Assembly (NCBI GenBank): GCA_905331295.1
Contig: CAJNYD010000446.1
Location: 1-33,790 of the forward strand
DNA length: 33,790 bases
From: Rotaria socialis
Taxonomy: Eukaryota
Direction of reading: 5' to 3'
The translations under genes and the position numbers were made by a program. The notes under the pieces are model-generated. The model was given only the letters and a program-made list of their open reading frames with translations, had not been told where the DNA came from and searched no databases. Below are positions 4,807 to 30,096 of this stretch, piece by piece (the stretch's first letter is position 1; the number at the start of each line of letters is the position of its first letter).

Positions 4807-5552
4807 CAGATTAAACTTTTTAATAAAAATGAGTAATTTATTATGAAATCAAAAACAGAGATGCATAGGGTTTGATTCATAGTTATTCGAACCGGTCTTA
4901 CTTTCGGTTTATGTCCTAATTATATTGACAGTCGGATTCACTGTGCCCTTGAGACATAAATTCTATCAAAATGTCCTTTTTTTGTAGCGTTATGTTTCAA
5001 TGCTCTCATGATAGTTATCAAACCAGAACTGTACATCTCTAGTTTAGTTTGATTTTGAGCGAAATTCATATAGTTAAGAAGAGTATGTTGATATATAATC
5101 GAATAAAAACAATGGTCTCGTAGGTAGAAAATAAATTATTGATGTATTTTTTGACATTTCTTGGTCTAAGAAAAGCAAAATATAAACAAACCAGTTCTAT
5201 CCATTAGAGAGAAAAGCACTTATGTTATGAACAATTTAACCGATGTCAATACAAAATGGCTATCATTTTAGTGGTCAGTAGAATAAATGAAATGGTCAGT
5301 AAGCAAAATAATTATAAAATCAGTAAAATAAATGAATGACCAGTAAAATAAATGAATGGACAATAAATTGAATGAATGAGCAGTAAATTATTTAAATGGT
5401 CAGTTATTAAAATAAATAAGTGTCTTAATACATTTAAAGAGCAGTAAATTAAATAAAAGGGTAAGTATAAAAATCACAATGTGTGATAGTGTGATTCACT
5501 TTTTTTCTTTCTTTCGGTCGTTCTACTATGTCGTCCAGCTGACTGCTACAAC

Positions 5553-5583
5553 ATATATATATATATATNATATATATATATAT
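5553..5583. repeat. (TA)n microsatellite containing an ambiguous base (N at 5569)
   Basis: Direct reading; possible assembly join. Confidence 0.95.
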
Positions 5584-7486
5584 GTACTCTTTGTTTCTAC
5601 CCTTTCTTTCACAATCAGCTGAGTGTCAACGAGTAAAACAGATGGAAGTGATACAAGTTGCCCAATATGAAAGTGAAACATCTGACGAAGAGATTATAAA
5701 AGAAAACCATGATATAAATGAACAAAGAAAAAAATCTAAATTTTGGGTTAAAGAATCTACGTTTGATAAACCTAGTGAAACAGAAGCATTAATTGAAAAT
5801 CAGTGGTCAAAACATTATACAAATTATACAGAAAATGGAAGAAAAGTTTATTATCGATGTAACAAAGTGAAGCGTCGTGGTCCCCAATGTAGTGCCAGCA
5901 TGTGTCTGCTGTATCATGCAGACAGTGACAAAGTTACTTGCTACAAAACTGAAGCTGAACACGATCATTATGATCACAAAGGTCGTGGTATTGATGGAAA
6001 TGTTAAAAAGATTATAGAAGAATTGTATAATGATGGTGTTATAAAGCCCAAACAAATTATTCGAGCACTTGAAGCAAGAAAAATAAAGACACCAACATAC
6101 ACACAATTGAACAATTATCTTATTCATTATAAAAAAAAGAAATATGGTTCATATAAAATAAGCTTAGGTGAATTAGAAAAATGGTGCGAAGACAATGGAG
6201 ATATTCCAATTGATGAAAATAAAGCTTTTGTTGTATCATACAAAATAATTTATGATGAACAAGAATATGATGATGAAGATACAGAGGAAGATAGTGGTAA
6301 TAAATTTCGTGTATTTATATCATCTGTATGTTTGCTCAATATTGCATCAATATCATCACATATAAATGCTGATGCAACATATAAATTAGTCTGGCAAGGT
6401 TTTCCTGTATTAATTGTTGGTACAACTGATTTGAATAAGAAGTTTCATCCATTTGGTTTAGCTATATGTTCCAATGAAAAAACAAAAGACTTCGAATTTA
6501 TATTTAATGGTATACAAATTGGTATGGAAAAATTAAATAAAGATTTATTAAAACCAACAGCATTGATATCCGATGCTGCAGATGCAATAAAAAATGGCTT
6601 TCGAAATGTATTTAATAATGAATATAATCAAATAATGTGCTGGGCACATATGAAACGAAAGATTGATAATCGTGTATGCCATATAAATGATAAACTTATC
6701 GGAAAAGAAATAATAGATGACATTGAAATGCTGCATTTATCCAATTCTACTGAAGTATTCAAATTGGCATATACATTATTTAAAAAGAAATGGAACATGA
6801 ACAACAAACAAACCAATCAGTCAATATTGGATTTTTTGAATTATTTTGATAATGAATGGATCAAATCAAATGATGGTTGGTATGAAGGTATACAGTTGTA
6901 TGCACCAAGTACAAACAATGCCTTGGAAGCAACCAATAAAACAATCAAAGATGATGGAACTTTTAGAGAACGCCACGTTCTATCAAGATTTTTGATAATA
7001 GGTTGTAACATTGTCAATAATTGGTCAAATGAACGAGATATTAAATCAATCAATGCAAAAATATTTGCTACTGAACCAACAATTTCTTTAGAATTATGGA
7101 CTTTGTCGTATCAATGGGCAAAATCAACAAAAGATATTATTTGTATTTCCAATGATTCTTCAAAAACATGTTATATACCAGCTCGTGATATACAATCAAT
7201 TACACAAGCCAATTTAAATAAATATAAAAATAAAAAATGGTCTACTTTCAATCAATTTCAAAAATCATTTGATATTTGGTGTATGGAAATGAATGATTCA
7301 ACTTGGAAAAAATCCAAATGTAACTGTCCTATTTTTTTCAAGAATTACATCTGCAAACACGTCGTTGGTATGGCTATTCGCCTGAAGTATTGTAAACCAC
7401 CACCAGCAGCAAAAACAGTACCCATCGGCGAAAAAAGAAAAAGAGGTAGACCAGCAAAAGCAAAACCTGCTTTACTTGTACAATAA
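5582..7486 (+). CDS. MULE transposase (DDE domain, SWIM zinc finger, C-terminal AT-hook); true start may be ATG 5642
   Basis: Uninterrupted 634-aa ORF with INADATYKL (D), ISDAADAI (D), CWAH (CxxH), TNNALE (E), SWIM CNCPIFFKNYICKH and KRKRGRP AT-hook. N-terminal YYRC...C...HDH zinc-finger-like motif. Confidence 0.93.
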   Translation: MYSLFLPFLSQSAECQRVKQMEVIQVAQYESETSDEEIIKENHDINEQRKKSKFWVKESTFDKPSETEALIENQWSKHYTNYTENGRKVYYRCNKVKRRGPQCSASMCLLYHADSDKVTCYKTEAEHDHYDHKGRGIDGNVKKIIEELYNDGVIKPKQIIRALEARKIKTPTYTQLNNYLIHYKKKKYGSYKISLGELEKWCEDNGDIPIDENKAFVVSYKIIYDEQEYDDEDTEEDSGNKFRVFISSVCLLNIASISSHINADATYKLVWQGFPVLIVGTTDLNKKFHPFGLAICSNEKTKDFEFIFNGIQIGMEKLNKDLLKPTALISDAADAIKNGFRNVFNNEYNQIMCWAHMKRKIDNRVCHINDKLIGKEIIDDIEMLHLSNSTEVFKLAYTLFKKKWNMNNKQTNQSILDFLNYFDNEWIKSNDGWYEGIQLYAPSTNNALEATNKTIKDDGTFRERHVLSRFLIIGCNIVNNWSNERDIKSINAKIFATEPTISLELWTLSYQWAKSTKDIICISNDSSKTCYIPARDIQSITQANLNKYKNKKWSTFNQFQKSFDIWCMEMNDSTWKKSKCNCPIFFKNYICKHVVGMAIRLKYCKPPPAAKTVPIGEKRKRGRPAKAKPALLVQ

Positions 7487-17261: not shown

Positions 17262-17721
17262 GATGAACTTGATTGATATCGACTGTTTGAATTCGATAAT
17301 AATAAAGAAATAAAGCAACCGTTAGATTTTTGGAAAAATCATCAAGAAACTTTTCCATATCTTTCAAAGTATGCTCGATCAATATTTTCAATTCCTGTAA
17401 CAACAACAAATGTGGAGAGAGAATTTTCCGCAGCTGGCTGGATTGTGAACGAAAGAAGAACAAATCCTCCACCAGATAGTAGGCGTGTAACAGTTCGGCT
17501 TTAGATCTGATCTGATCAGAAGAAGTGGCGGAAAAGATCAGAGGGACTCACTGAACAAATGTGTGGATCTGATCTGATCTGTTATAATCATTCAGATCAG
17601 ATCAGAAGATCTGTTTGAACAGATCTCTGGATCTGATCTGAGATCTGTTATACCCCTGCCAGATAGTCTAGAGAGCATTTTATTAGTAAGATCAGCGGGA
17701 AAACGTTCACATAAAAAGTAA
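17262..17721 (+). pseudogene. hAT transposase C-terminal dimerisation-domain remnant, interrupted by a MITE
   Basis: DELD*YRL...PLDFWKNHQETFPYLSKYARSIFSIPVTTTNVEREFSAAGWIVNERRTNPPPDS. After removing the insert and one TSD copy the frame continues LESILLVRSAGKRSHKK*. Confidence 0.9.
17480..17658. mobile_element. 179-bp hAT-type MITE rich in AGATC/GATCT motifs, nested in the hAT remnant
   Basis: Perfect 8-bp TSD CCAGATAG at 17472-17479 and 17659-17666. TIR TAGGCGTGTAACAG vs reverse-complement CAGGGGTATAACAG (11/14). Confidence 0.9.
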
Positions 17722-24239: not shown

Positions 24240-24974
24240 TTATCGAATTTCATCGAGTTTCATAGCTAAATGTCCTGTTTTCATAAACAATTGACATCCA
24301 TTCTCACTTGTGACTTTAAATTTTCGTCCTGCCCAATCAACGGGTCGTCTAATCCAAAATCCTTTTGTGCACTTATTCTTATTGTTTTCATCATCGGTGC
24401 CATCAATATTTTCGAAACTCATATCACCCTTGAGTACAAATATTTCTTCACCGCCTTGTCCAACAACCCAATTATCACTTTGAAAACCAGGTTCCAATTT
24501 CTCCATCCATACGTATTCGCCTGTTTTTGCATTTGAAAATAAATCAAGACGTTCTCGTTTTGCATCCGAATCTTTTTTCCAATCATTCGAAGTTTCTGTA
24601 TCGATGAGGGTGATAGGTGCTTCTGTACGATCATTCATTTGACGAAGTTTAACCAATAGAGTGGCTCCTTCTTCAGTTGTCCATGGTTCATGTAATGTAC
24701 CCATTCCATGTCGACAGTAAGTCAATGGACTGTGATCACCCGATAGATCATCGAAAAGTCGCCCGTCTAACATAACAAATTCTTCGCCACCTTCATGATT
24801 ATGACGAGGAAATTTCACAAATGGATCGAATTTAACAATAGTTGTAGCACGAGCAACTTCATCACCTATTCGATCTAACATTCGACGTTGAACACCTTTC
24901 TTAGGCGAATCAACAAATGGAATTAAATTAGAATCGATAACATGTGGAACAGAAAGATCAGAACAAATCTGCAT
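24240..24974 (-). CDS. ChrR-like bicupin (Cupin_7) protein, bacterial type, intronless; horizontal-transfer candidate
   Basis: 244 aa. SPKKGVQRRMLDRIGDEVARATTIVKF...RHNHEGGEEFVMLDG...LHEPW..EGATLLVKLRQM, then a second cupin GGEEIFVLKG...GCQLFMKTGHL, match the bacterial ChrR-type cupin family. Confidence 0.9.
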   Translation of the reverse strand: MQICSDLSVPHVIDSNLIPFVDSPKKGVQRRMLDRIGDEVARATTIVKFDPFVKFPRHNHEGGEEFVMLDGRLFDDLSGDHSPLTYCRHGMGTLHEPWTTEEGATLLVKLRQMNDRTEAPITLIDTETSNDWKKDSDAKRERLDLFSNAKTGEYVWMEKLEPGFQSDNWVVGQGGEEIFVLKGDMSFENIDGTDDENNKNKCTKGFWIRRPVDWAGRKFKVTSENGCQLFMKTGHLAMKLDEIR

Positions 24975-25448: not shown

Positions 25449-28400
25449 ATGTTACGTTTTTATATAAAAAGTTATCATCTTCAATCAGCTTGCGTTATAA
25501 ATATTTGGTCAACTAGATGTTTATCTTCAGCGAATAAATTGATTAGTCATGATGAAATTCGTACATGGAATCATTCATTACGTGAACTTCTTCGTCATGG
25601 TAAACTGGAAGAAGTTCTTGAACAATATCATAATCGAAAATCAACATTAGGAGATCTATCTATACAAACTTATTGTATAATTTTTAAAGCATTTACATTA
25701 ACTAAAAAATGGTCGGAAGCTCATCGATTATATACTCAAATTCAAACTAATACAAAACTTTATAATGACCAACAATTAAAAATTGCAAGTAGTTTAAAAA
25801 ACTCAAAACGATATTTTTATGCATTGACTTTTTTAAAATTGTTTTTGTATTAGATCATTTTAAATATGTACTCAAAAGCAGGTTACTTCGATCAAGGTAT
25901 ATTTCACTTTATTTTTTCGTTCTTAATTTCTGTTGTTGAATTTAGCGGAACAGATTCTTGCTGATCTACTAGCATCACTGCCAACATCGACTAAGCCGCA
26001 CCATATTGATCCAACTGTTTTTTCTATAGTTATGACTGGATATAATCTTCATCGTCAACCAGACAAGACTTTAATCACTTTTGATCGTGTTCAATGTCCC
26101 GATGCTATTTCTTATTTACTAGCATTTCAAGCATGCGCACTATTAAAAAACTTACAAAAAGGAAAAGAATTAGCTAAAAAATTAGAAAAATTAAATATAG
26201 ATCTTGGAAAAAATTTCAAATTACAGACTGCATTATTTGATGTAAGTCGCTCTAGACTCAATGATAATACCTAATTGTTTATTAGTAGATGTATGGTAAA
26301 TGTGATGATGTACCCAATGGTAAATATTATAAAAAATCAATTTTTAATTTTCTTAGATATTTATTTTTGTTTCTCTATTCAGCTGAAACTATTTTTGATA
26401 TGATTGAAAATCCAACGATAGTTCATTACAATTCTTTGTATGTTTTTCAATTTATTATTTCAAATGATTTATTTGTATTTTGTTTTTTGTGTAGATTAAA
26501 AGTATACAATAATAATAAGATGTATGATAAAGCATTTGAATTGTATTATAAATTAAAACAAAATCAAAAGAATCTTATACCAGATCAAATCACATTTAGT
26601 TGCATTCTATATTCTGTTGCTAAAATAGCTCATAGTGATCGATGCCAAGATATTCTAAATGATTTAAATTCAAGCAAAATTCATCTTGATCAACATCCTA
26701 TTCTTCAAACAAGTCTAATTCATGCATTAGGCAAATGTGGAGATATCACTACAGGTAAATAATCAATTGTTTTAGTAAACAATAAAAATATTGTTTTTAA
26801 AAATAATCTAGCTCAAGAAATCTTCGATCAAATTACTCAAGAACGTACAACTGGTATTTATAATGTAAGATATATGTGTCGGGAAGAATTTGTGCCATTG
26901 TGTCGTTTTTTATAGGTTTTGATGAAGGGTTATATCTATGCTCAAACACCATTAACAGCCCTATCTATTTTTGATAAAATATCAAAACCTGATACAATTT
27001 CCTATTTGATTGCAATCAATGCTTGCGCTCAAATCTCTATGCTTCGTCGAGCTCGAATTTTATATGACCAAATTTTATCGAATTTTCCATCATGTAAAGA
27101 AGATATTCGAATAATGAATGCTCTTATTGATATGTTCGGAAAAGTAAATCAAAATTATTATATACGTATATTTAGGCAAGAACTAATCAATCTAATATTC
27201 TTCTAATTTGTTTTTTCTCTAGTGTGCTGATGTCAATGTAGCTCAACAACTATTTAATATGATTGAACATAAAGATATTATTTCGTATAATGCACTGGTA
27301 AAAATATATATTTTATCTATTAACATGTCTTCATAATTCTGTTTCTTTTTAAGATTAATGCCTATGGTATGAAATATCTTTTAAGCTCTATTTTACTAAA
27401 AACAAGCTCTTTTATTTCGAAGGTCTCAATGGTTATGGTTTGAAGGCTTTCAACATTTACAATTCGCTCTTAAAGAATTCAACATTAATTCCAGACGAAA
27501 AAACTTTCTCAATTCTTATTAATGCTTGTTCACATTCATTACTTGTTAATGAAGCTGAACAAATCTTTGATTCGATACCAATTAAATCTCGAAATGTTTT
27601 TATTTACGCTACTATGGTAGATCATATATTTTTCTATAGTGAGAATTTAATTTTTTTTAAATATTATAGATTGATACATTGTGTCGCGCATCAAAAATAA
27701 ATCAAGCTGAAAATCTACTTGTTCAATTTGAGCAAACCAATAGAAAATATCCACCGATGTATATAACATTGTTAACAGCTTATGCTCGTGTTGGAAATAT
27801 TAATAAAGTGATTGAGATACGTGATTTTATTCAGGAACATTTTCCCACTGATTTTCATTATATTTCATCAGCAACAATTCTTCTAGCCAATACGTATGCT
27901 TTTCTGGATAATATGAATGAAGCAAAACGTTTACGTACGATACTAACGGAAACAAATAAGCTACGTGGAATATCAAAATTACCTGGAATATCATGGACAG
28001 AAACGAATGATGGTCAAATACATGAATTTATTGCTCATGATGTTTGTATAAAAGAAAATTGAAACAATCAAAATTGAATTGAATTTTTGTTTAGAAACGT
28101 CATGAGCGAACAGAAGATATTTATGAAGAACTGAAATATATTTCTGATAAACTTAGCAAAGATGGTCATAAAAGTGACCGAAGATGGATAACATCAGATC
28201 ATAATTGTAGTGAATTAACCGATCCATTACATACTCATAGTGAACGGTTAGCACTTGCATATCAATTATTACTACGAAGAACAATACCGAGTAATGAACC
28301 AATACAAATTACAAAAAATCTTCGAATATGTGGAGATTGTCATGAAATTTTCAAACGAATCACTCGTATTTACACAGGACTGATTATTTTAATTCGAGAT

Positions 28401-28457
28401 AGAACACGATATCATAAATTTCAACAAGGAGAATGCTCTTGTAATGACTTTTTTTGA
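25449..28457 (+). CDS. PPR-E/E+-DYW protein (plant-type RNA-editing-factor architecture), 13 exons, ~772 aa
   Basis: Exons 25449-25784, 25854-25896, 25946-26241, 26289-26319, 26383-26437, 26495-26754, 26812-26864, 26916-27143, 27223-27297, 27354-27366, 27423-27616, 27670-28041 and 28095-28457 total 2319 nt and stay in frame. PPR motifs (NALIDMFGKCADVNVAQQLF, PDEKTFSILINACSH), E domain (ILLANTYA), PG box (KLPGISWTE), and DYW domain HSERLALAY...KNLRICGDCH...IRD..RYHKFQQGECSCNDFF*. Confidence 0.93.
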
Positions 28458-28959
28458 AATAAAATTCAAACAAAATTATTTCTTTCTTTGATTAGAAAAT
28501 AATATAGAAATAAAAGAAAACTACTAATTTCTAAGTAAATATCTGATAATTTATAGTGATTGATACAAATTTTCAATAGTAATCTTTCGATTGATACTGC
28601 AATTTTATCGCCTATGTTCATATTTTCAAATCTATATCCGACCAAGAATCTTCTGTCTATTATTAGTACAAAAAGTACAACATGAAAATGTAGACAGAAA
28701 AAATTTATTTTTTAAAAATAGAAAGAATGAACCTAGATAATCATCGATGTAATCAGGCGGAAAAAAAACGAAGGCTATTAGTTTTTTCCTTTTCTGGTAA
28801 TGCTTATCGCTCATGAGTCATGTATTTTACAAAACAATGTCGATGAGTCAACCGGTGACATTGCATTCTATGCACTGATGTAAATTTATAATCGACTCTT
28901 TATTCTGTGTTTTTTAGCATCCTAAAGAATTTAACTTTGTCTTAACACAAACATCACCG

Positions 28960-30096
28960 ATGGCAACATTACTTGAATATTTACCAGATGAAATTCTCCT
29001 GACTATTTGTCAATATCTGTATCAGCGCTACATTATTCAGGCTTTTTGTGGTTTAAACTCTCGTCTTAATTGTACAATTTCACATTTCACTCGATCTTTT
29101 ATTGTATCTGATGAAAACTTCTTGACAAAGGAAGAAAATTTCAAACTACTTTCTACTATTGGACCTTATCTTCATTCTCTTACAATAAAAAATATTTCTC
29201 TATCTGCAAATGAAATAAGTTTAGCATCAAATATTCGAGAACTGACATTGATTCATACGCAACCCTGTCTTATTCCGGTAATTTTGTAAGAAAGATTCAA
29301 TGAAAACCGAAACTTTCGATTGTATTTTTAGTCACTTCGAAATCTAACTGATTTGAATATTATCTACGGGCCAAAATTTCAATCGATTGATGTTTTATTT
29401 TTACCAAATAATAATATTCATTCTGTTTATATTTCTTCAATTAGTCCTTTAAAAGTCCCTGTATTTTCACCTTCAAAATTTTCTTCAATCAAACAACTTA
29501 CTATAATTCTTCAATCATTTCATGATTTTGTTCAATTACTTCGTATTTGTCCGCAACTTACATGTCTGAATCTGACACTACAAACTTGTGATCCAATAAT
29601 CTTAGAAATACCAGACAAGTAAGATTAACTTTAATTAGATCTAAACTAATTTGATTTATGTAGTCAATTACAAATCGAAACATCTTCAACTCTTCGTAAT
29701 TTTTCACTTCGAACAACGTACGATCTTAATGTTAACTTCAATACATTAAAAAATATATTTAAACACTTAAGTTCAAATATCGAACATATTGCTATCGAAA
29801 TTAATACCGAAGATATAGCATGTATTGATGGTGAACTATGGGAAAACTATTTGAAACAAAATCTACTAGATTTACATCGGTTTGAATTTTTCATTCTATT
29901 AAGAAAAGAAAATCAAGACCAGACAAAACTAATACCGTTAGGAGATATCTTTAAGAAATTTCAAAGTTCATATTGGTCTTTAATGATTCCTCAAAATATG
30001 ACTGGATACTATAATTCATCCTTTTCTGGTATATCGACATGTATTCATACAAAAGCTATTCCAACAGTGAAACGACGACGCTATTTTTTGAACTAA
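28960..30096 (+). CDS. F-box domain / LRR-like protein, 3 exons
   Basis: Exons 28960-29277, 29332-29618 and 29664-30096 join in frame. N-terminal LEYLPDEILLTICQYL...AFCGLNSRLN F-box-like motif, CPQLTCLNL, and IDGELWENYL typical of the expanded rotifer F-box family. Confidence 0.8.

Follow-up and report, generated by a model that had tools for sequence, protein, structure and literature searches.

Bdelloid rotifers probably edit their mitochondrial mRNA, and likely in the way plants do, since a complete PPR-DYW gene is present in Rotaria socialis and bdelloid mitochondrial DNA (mtDNA) holds many codons that C-to-U editing could repair. We also hold with good confidence that the comparisons point to plant-type, site-specific C-to-U editing by an acquired PPR-DYW family, which would be the first in animals, with the gene described here as an old member. 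The protein itself is likely mitochondrial, and would probably deaminate a specific cytidine of a mitochondrial RNA to uridine. The gene lies in what we call the window, the whole stretch of 33,790 nucleotides that was analysed.

Gene structure and surroundings

The frame runs open throughout, from an ATG at 25449 to a TGA at 28457 on the forward strand, in 13 exons of 772 codons (772 aa), as had been proposed from the letters alone:

25449-25784, +, exon 1 of the PPR-DYW gene
25785-25853, +, intron 1, putatively GC-AG
25854-25896, +, exon 2
25946-26241, +, exon 3
26289-26319, +, exon 4
26383-26437, +, exon 5
26495-26754, +, exon 6
26812-26864, +, exon 7
26916-27143, +, exon 8
27223-27297, +, exon 9
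27354-27366, +, exon 10
27423-27616, +, exon 11
27670-28041, +, exon 12
28095-28457, +, exon 13, the DYW deaminase exon

The 12 introns measure 47-79 nt each, in a window that is AT-rich with short introns. Intron 1 must begin with GC because both nearby GT donors break the frame (80 stops each), which leaves the GC donor as the sole open-frame option among the three tried. Contigs of run X10, which belong to a relative about 97% alike and are presumed to be transcripts, skip introns 3 to 12 at the predicted places (10 of the 12 introns), and they include the 13-nt micro-exon and the join of exon 12 to the DYW exon. The spliced message and the union of the deaminase exon with the PPR exons, both expected from the sequence-only reading, are borne out by these presumed RNA contigs. 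No contig of this run bridges introns 1 and 2; the join of exons 2 and 3 stands at the start of proteins annotated for R. magnacalcarata and for R. sp. Silwood2. The public R. socialis models have 759 aa, with the DYW exon included and exon 2 skipped, and in the public models as a whole exon 2 is either skipped or contains the start. The 772-aa protein is 98% identical to the R. socialis models when the 13-residue gap is counted, and otherwise equal to them.

The scaffold is metazoan, as had been supposed, since neighbouring frames match the VPS13, PH, homeodomain, Arf-like, HOATZ-like, MULE and hAT families of Pfam. The two neighbours named earlier were PHLDB and HOATZ: a HOATZ-like frame and a PH-domain gene are indeed there, the name PHLDB for the latter being putative, by resemblance. 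Just upstream of the PPR-DYW gene, at 24243-24974 (-), a single long frame encodes a ChrR cupin-like domain (PF12973, E 2e-27), and this gene too may have come by horizontal transfer. Downstream of the DYW exon, at 28918-30093 (+), lies a gene without a Pfam match whose start presumably resembles an F-box. Several R. magnacalcarata models splice the DYW exon into the downstream gene, giving false fusions of 980-1083 aa without the CxxC. The window also contains an intact-looking MULE transposase with a SWIM finger (5543-7483, +) and a remnant of a hAT dimerisation domain (17277-17501, +).

Protein architecture

The domains follow the order presequence-like N-terminus, 15 PPR motifs, E1/E2, PG box and DYW domain, with these positions:

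25449-25529, +, predicted mitochondrial presequence, from composition and motif only; ends R-x-L-S-S (R-C-L-S-S), an R-3-like motif
25557-27750, +, 15 PPR motifs, (P1-L1-S1)x4 + P2-L2-S2, residues 37-555
27751-27981, +, E1 and E2 motifs, residues 556-632 (PF20431)
27982-28029, +, PG box, residues 633-648, from sequence
28236-28244, +, HSE (H700-S-E702), in the DYW exon
28329-28343, +, C731-G-D-C734-H735, in the DYW exon

With the P-L-S array, E1/E2, PG box and DYW domain all present, the gene is by its motifs a PLS-class, DYW-subgroup PPR protein, and by anatomy it resembles a plant organellar editing factor. The profile scan placed DYW_deaminase (PF14432; 94.6 bits against a cut-off of 24, E 3e-27), E_motif (PF20431; 27.7 against 27.3 bits) and PPR families above their cut-offs, and every element read earlier from the letters was recovered by Pfam or in the sequence: PPR repeats, E domain, PG box (as defined in PMC4202320), HSE, CGDC and the terminal H..F..G.CSC. 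H759, C766 and C768 also lie in the DYW exon, and the domain carries a second zinc site (H, H, CxC) beside HxE...CxxC. When the protein is aligned to OTP86 (7o4e) and to 9kfx, a synthetic PPR-DYW, the catalytic and structural zinc ligands are identical. The protein ends in DFF rather than DYW and its orthologues in DYF; the terminal tripeptide is described as variable in non-plants (PMC13386178).

The PPR motif borders were placed by eye from the motif consensus, and the array is also backed by the Pfam PPR families found on the public 759-aa version (P0125) and by helical pairs in its structure model. The codes at the fifth and last residues read NS CD ID SD LN TT ND SH TT ND LD ND ND SN AY; a predicted target would roughly fit G.AU..U.UUA....C. 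The model of P0125 has a mean pLDDT of 85.7, and among its fold matches 9kfx, a complex of synthetic PPR-DYW with RNA, comes first (E 8e-28). A U-to-C editor of the DYW:KP type was considered and rejected, as the PG box here is canonical and there is no KP-type box. In the DYW:KP editors of hornworts, lycophytes and ferns such a box stands in place of the PG box.

The N-terminus is basic and free of acidic residues until D35, as first read, and residues 1-32 form a low-confidence segment in the model of P0125. R-x-L-S-S is kept in both Silwood orthologues, though the remaining N-terminus is just 46-49% identical. Furthermore, of 47 bdelloid paralogues that start with Met, 32 have basic, acid-poor first 25 residues, a composition shared by 12.7% of 6640 internal windows.

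Orthologues and the bdelloid family

The R. magnacalcarata orthologue is about 95% identical, those of two Silwood species 76-78% (gap counted), and those in metagenome records 63-72% along their C-terminal portion. In comparison with both Silwood proteins, identity is 87-88% in the DYW domain, 78-80% in the PPR part and 46-49% in the N-terminus, with 11 of the 15 PPR codes unchanged in Silwood2. A fragment of the R. sordida orthologue reads HSEC instead of HSER. The remaining bdelloid DYW family shows 31-37% identity to the window protein (39% for one shorter protein), and plant proteins 23-30%.

A quick tree was built with 89 rows, that is, 104 less 15 without the expected DYW pattern; it held 13 named plant rows and no named protist DYW. 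The orthologue group (10 rows, 63-95% identity) has 100% support and a long stem, and a 98% branch places it with the bdelloid rows, apart from all 13 named plant rows, which takes up in part the earlier suggestion of a phylogeny against plant and other DYWs. Its position among the bdelloid rows has weak support. On this tree the group is conserved and deep-branching within the bdelloid family. No Adineta orthologue was among the relatives found in protein searches, and viral contigs held no relative of the protein.

Bdelloid DYW-PPR genes have been published. Rotifer DYWs were noted, and mitochondrial editing proposed, in PMC3239186; PMC4202320 puts them near Naegleria, PMC5295000 restates the point, and PMC13386178 lists ten bdelloid species, R. 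socialis among them, and gives 60 DYW genes for A. vaga, 58 of them expressed. The gene is indeed intact, spliced and housed in a bdelloid, but it is not rare, being part of a large published family (PMC13386178). By its alignments it is a new, well-conserved member of that known family.

T-to-C excess in bdelloid mtDNA

A primer-derived rrnL pattern fetched 63 bdelloid mitochondrial loci, most of them metagenome contigs. Named bdelloids share 85-98% identity with the 34 loci that contain cytochrome b, and three loci viewed in full have the gene order of R. rotatoria (PMC2784805). After exclusion of the outlier L050 (GC 33%), 57 loci had coding sequence, and with a limit of 93% identity they fell into 44 lineages.

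In these 44 lineages, a count was made of radical changes that a single kind of change could repair, at columns without other variation. T>C accounts for 36 of 979 opportunities, and the other 11 kinds of change together for 29 of 7273 (in a first-pass count, 37/966 against 45/5454, p 6e-11). A C-to-U change would repair each of these radical T-to-C codons. Silent T>C, by comparison, is among the rarest silent changes (420 of 13784, 3.0%), so mutation bias fails to explain the radical excess; the radical-to-silent ratio is 0.076 for T>C and 0.0008-0.009 in the eight other classes with a denominator. Third positions agree in part: the Ser codon is TCA or TCG in 30 of 30 cases over 16 Leu/Ser columns, a pair that supplies 11% of all Ser codons, and at Phe/Ser columns the Ser codon is TCT in 7 of 7, while at Phe/Leu columns the codons are mostly ordinary TTA/TTG (34 of 51).

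By the strict test the candidate load is 0-9 per lineage, and three near-complete mtDNAs have zero candidate sites. Most sites were found in L006, L011, L021 and L040 (6-9 each); L002, L033 and L042 have none over 10 kb. Given this low load and the three genomes at zero, visible sites are fewer than the dozens of DYW genes. The disproportion between a DYW family far bigger than the candidate mitochondrial sites of a genome could speak for action elsewhere, on nuclear-encoded, viral or transposon RNA or on ssDNA, for example in defence or the UV response, and a UV link is speculated on in PMC13386178. We consider such a role very improbable, as presequence-like N-termini occur in the window gene, its orthologues and those 32 of 47 paralogues, and the mtDNA signature itself points to mitochondria.

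Candidate sites in single genes

The affected conserved motifs are PEWY of cytochrome b, HFH of cox1 and GESEL of nad1; the changes recur across the tree and differ between clones. Candidate positions include L274 and L280 of cob and F377 of cox1. In cox1, HFH, which presumably sits between haem ligands, becomes HLH in 10 of 37 loci, with the Leu codon always CTT. GESEL of nad1 becomes GESES in 7 loci (codon always TCA), and atp6 begins with ACG in 7 of 50 loci. In cytochrome b, H, S, P or L can stand within PEWYFLFAYCIL, encoded by a C codon in every case. In the ten residues after KPE, 51 of 128 full-length bdelloid records deviate, and all 19 variant types are F>S/L/P, L>S/P, Y>H or C>R; PEWYFL is present in 33 of 34 non-bdelloid cytochromes b.

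C-forms stand to other radical kinds of cytochrome b change as 17:35 in 69 bdelloid records. The 34 outgroups give 1:27 (p 0.002), and a subset of 23 records with comparable divergence gives 0:16 (p 0.007). A further cytochrome b count of 107:6 is not relied on; it is partly circular because its columns were chosen to allow C-forms. The states of candidate sites change 4-6 times on a 28-lineage tree.

Among the named mitogenomes, C-forms are carried by Philodina citrina, Adineta vaga and, of three Macrotrachela clones, one. The candidate codons of cob lie in VESHW and PEWYSLF in A. vaga and in PEWYFSF and ISRS in P. citrina. The cytochrome b of R. rotatoria has none, though they are present in 3 of the 5 records nearest to it. 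Genomic DNA was the source of the A. vaga and Macrotrachela sequences (PMC3426538), and the Macrotrachela clones differ at that one cytochrome b codon, so the site behaves like a silent polymorphism. Near-identical cytochrome b pairs that differ only at candidate sites had been considered as RNA-versus-DNA pairs. This reading was dropped because the DNA-derived Macrotrachela clones and the locus L043 show the same differences at the DNA level. A final cluster look-up gave no further informative cytochrome b pair, no named cDNA-derived bdelloid cytochrome b surfaced in the record search, and neither primer matching nor cytochrome b identity, which reached 88% at best, brought any locus close to R. 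rotatoria. On contigs of up to 1500 nt, C-forms are present in 5 of 35 records and on longer ones in 55 of 134 (p 0.003), the records being non-independent and unlabelled as to RNA or DNA origin, so that the scarcity on contigs about one cob message long is a hint, consistent with editing.

A different reading of these codons is that there is no editing: they would be real amino-acid changes accumulating under weak selection in asexual bdelloids, nuclear copies or assembly errors, and the DYW proteins would act otherwise. Most mtDNA records in the comparison are metagenome contigs, and Barraclough 2007 is titled as evidence of inefficient selection on bdelloid cox1. Weak selection, however, should lift all classes of change in proportion to mutation, whereas T>C belongs to the rarest changes when silent and is the commonest when radical; the same codons stand in the three named GenBank mitogenomes and on contigs of up to 14 kb with open frames, and third positions remain compatible with C-to-U repair. 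This explanation appears improbable to us.

Several observations were made in passing. Two cox1 Ala codons opposite mammalian Val/Ile, in 37/37 and 35/37 loci, may be ancient sites or real substitutions and were excluded from the count. At nad4 HVEAS and nad5 WLL in the bdelloid consensus, positions where other animals carry Pro, the direction is opposite to C-to-U repair. The cox1-nad6 spacer holds a conserved stem-loop with a GCA anticodon that looks like tRNA-Cys, which is reported missing from R. rotatoria mtDNA (PMC2784805), and several bdelloid mitochondrial tRNAs look very short. P0375, P0380 and P0386 group together as a divergent cytochrome b of rotifer-like type, at 57-68% to the query, with C-type changes such as PERY, ISR and TNLP in two of the three. 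P0520 and P0521 are bdelloid-type cytochrome b fragments; the 14.3 kb contig that carries them is filed under a Bdellovibrionales MAG but is probably a mitochondrial genome placed in the wrong bin.

PPR-code scan and role of the protein

The PPR code was scanned, with codes from PMC6468296 and weights of our own, against the mtDNA of bdelloids other than R. socialis, the nad3-nad2 spacer (4 loci) lying outside the scan. No conserved target in these mtDNAs rose above shuffled codes. The top site (cox1, 29 lineages) was rejected as an ordinary conserved Ala, 12 shuffled codes having given 15-42 lineages, and the exact 7-position pattern was met with a C in at most one lineage, against 1-30 for 20 shuffles.

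In plants, some DYW proteins work in processing or in trans, and trans donors have short PPR arrays. It is conceivable that bdelloids edit their mitochondrial RNA while this orthologue binds a mitochondrial transcript so as to define or protect its end, or serves as a DYW donor to paralogues lacking the domain. The orthologue group is old and slow, with its long, fully supported stem, unlike sites that come and go; its code matches no candidate site in the mtDNA of other bdelloids; and trans DYW donors are also named in PMC13386178. Against a non-editor role stand the full array of 15 motifs, the code kept across Rotaria (11 of 15 in Silwood2) and the intact active site, and the scan covered the mtDNA of other bdelloids rather than that of the host. 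We regard this alternative as unlikely, although less so than the other two.

The claim of a working mitochondrial editing enzyme stands in part: the gene is intact and spliced, the N-terminus is presequence-like and bdelloid mtDNA carries the expected signature, but the code scan gave no target. Counting against it are also the HSEC of R. sordida, the DFF end, the mtDNAs with zero sites, the lack of C-forms in R. rotatoria cytochrome b, the ordinary TTA/TTG codons at most Phe/Leu columns and the five short-contig records with C-forms. Furthermore, no Adineta orthologue surfaced, yet A. vaga mtDNA has C-forms.

Discussion

We propose that the PPR-DYW protein is imported into the mitochondria of Rotaria. 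By analogy with plant factors, its presequence would be cut at R-x-L|S, the 15 repeats would each recognise one base, about 15 in all, S2 lying at position -4, and the DYW domain would deaminate the C at position 0. The comparative data suggest that bdelloid mitochondria use C-to-U mRNA editing through a DYW family gained by horizontal transfer. Vital codons could then bear genomic T-to-C changes, because the message would be repaired. Fast-turning paralogues probably track lineage-specific sites, and the slow orthologue group probably acts on an older site or fulfils a shared function.

The window gene has the same lineage and architecture as the bdelloid genes of cluster IV in PMC13386178 (earlier PMC3239186 and PMC4202320), and it differs from the bulk of the family in belonging to its own group of 10 rows, at 31-37% identity to that bulk. 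The available parts of these three papers contain no edited rotifer site, and the word 'editing' is absent from the available part of the R. rotatoria mitogenome paper (PMC2784805). Literature searches, with subscription journals mostly outside their coverage, returned no report of edited sites in rotifer mitochondria. With respect to the published DYW genes, the new part is the mtDNA signature on the presumed substrate side.

With the land-plant structures OTP86 (7o4e), DYW1 (7w86) and 9kfx the protein shares P-L-S triplets, P2-L2-S2, E1/E2, the PG box, HxE/CxxC and the second zinc. It is unlike land-plant factors in its animal host, its 12 short introns (one GC-AG) and its DFF end, and its activity is a prediction. 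Schallenberg-Rudinger 2013 reportedly names candidate sites for Malawimonas, not for rotifers. Mitochondrial DYW editing in Naegleria, Acrasis and Physarum likewise involves a horizontally acquired family and few sites; bdelloids differ in being metazoans with a compact mtDNA of 14-15 kb and candidate sites that vary by lineage and clone. In marsupials, the anticodon of mitochondrial tRNA-Asp is edited C-to-U, a single tRNA site with no known PPR-DYW factor. That case is likewise C-to-U in animal mitochondrial RNA, and the bdelloids present many candidate mRNA codons. Bdelloid DYW genes outnumber visible sites, as in Acrasis, where 12 DYW genes are present and editing was confirmed at 2 of the 6 sites predicted (PMC4202320).

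The existence of DYW genes in rotifers has been on record since 2011, and the parts of the literature covered demonstrate no substrate for them; with the candidate codons, RNA and DNA from one and the same clone would suffice to test for rotifer editing. If the proposal is true, bdelloids would be a source of animal-adapted single-protein C-to-U editors for mitochondrial RNA work, and bdelloid mitochondrial proteins read from DNA, dN/dS values and cox1 barcodes would be partly wrong. In the same joint reading, sites would come and go between species, and even between clones, at residues otherwise fixed across life, which would offer a small, fast-evolving model of editing-site gain and loss; part of the apparent mutational decay in the mtDNA of the asexual bdelloids would be repaired in the RNA; and a whole organellar editing system would have crossed into an animal and become working machinery.
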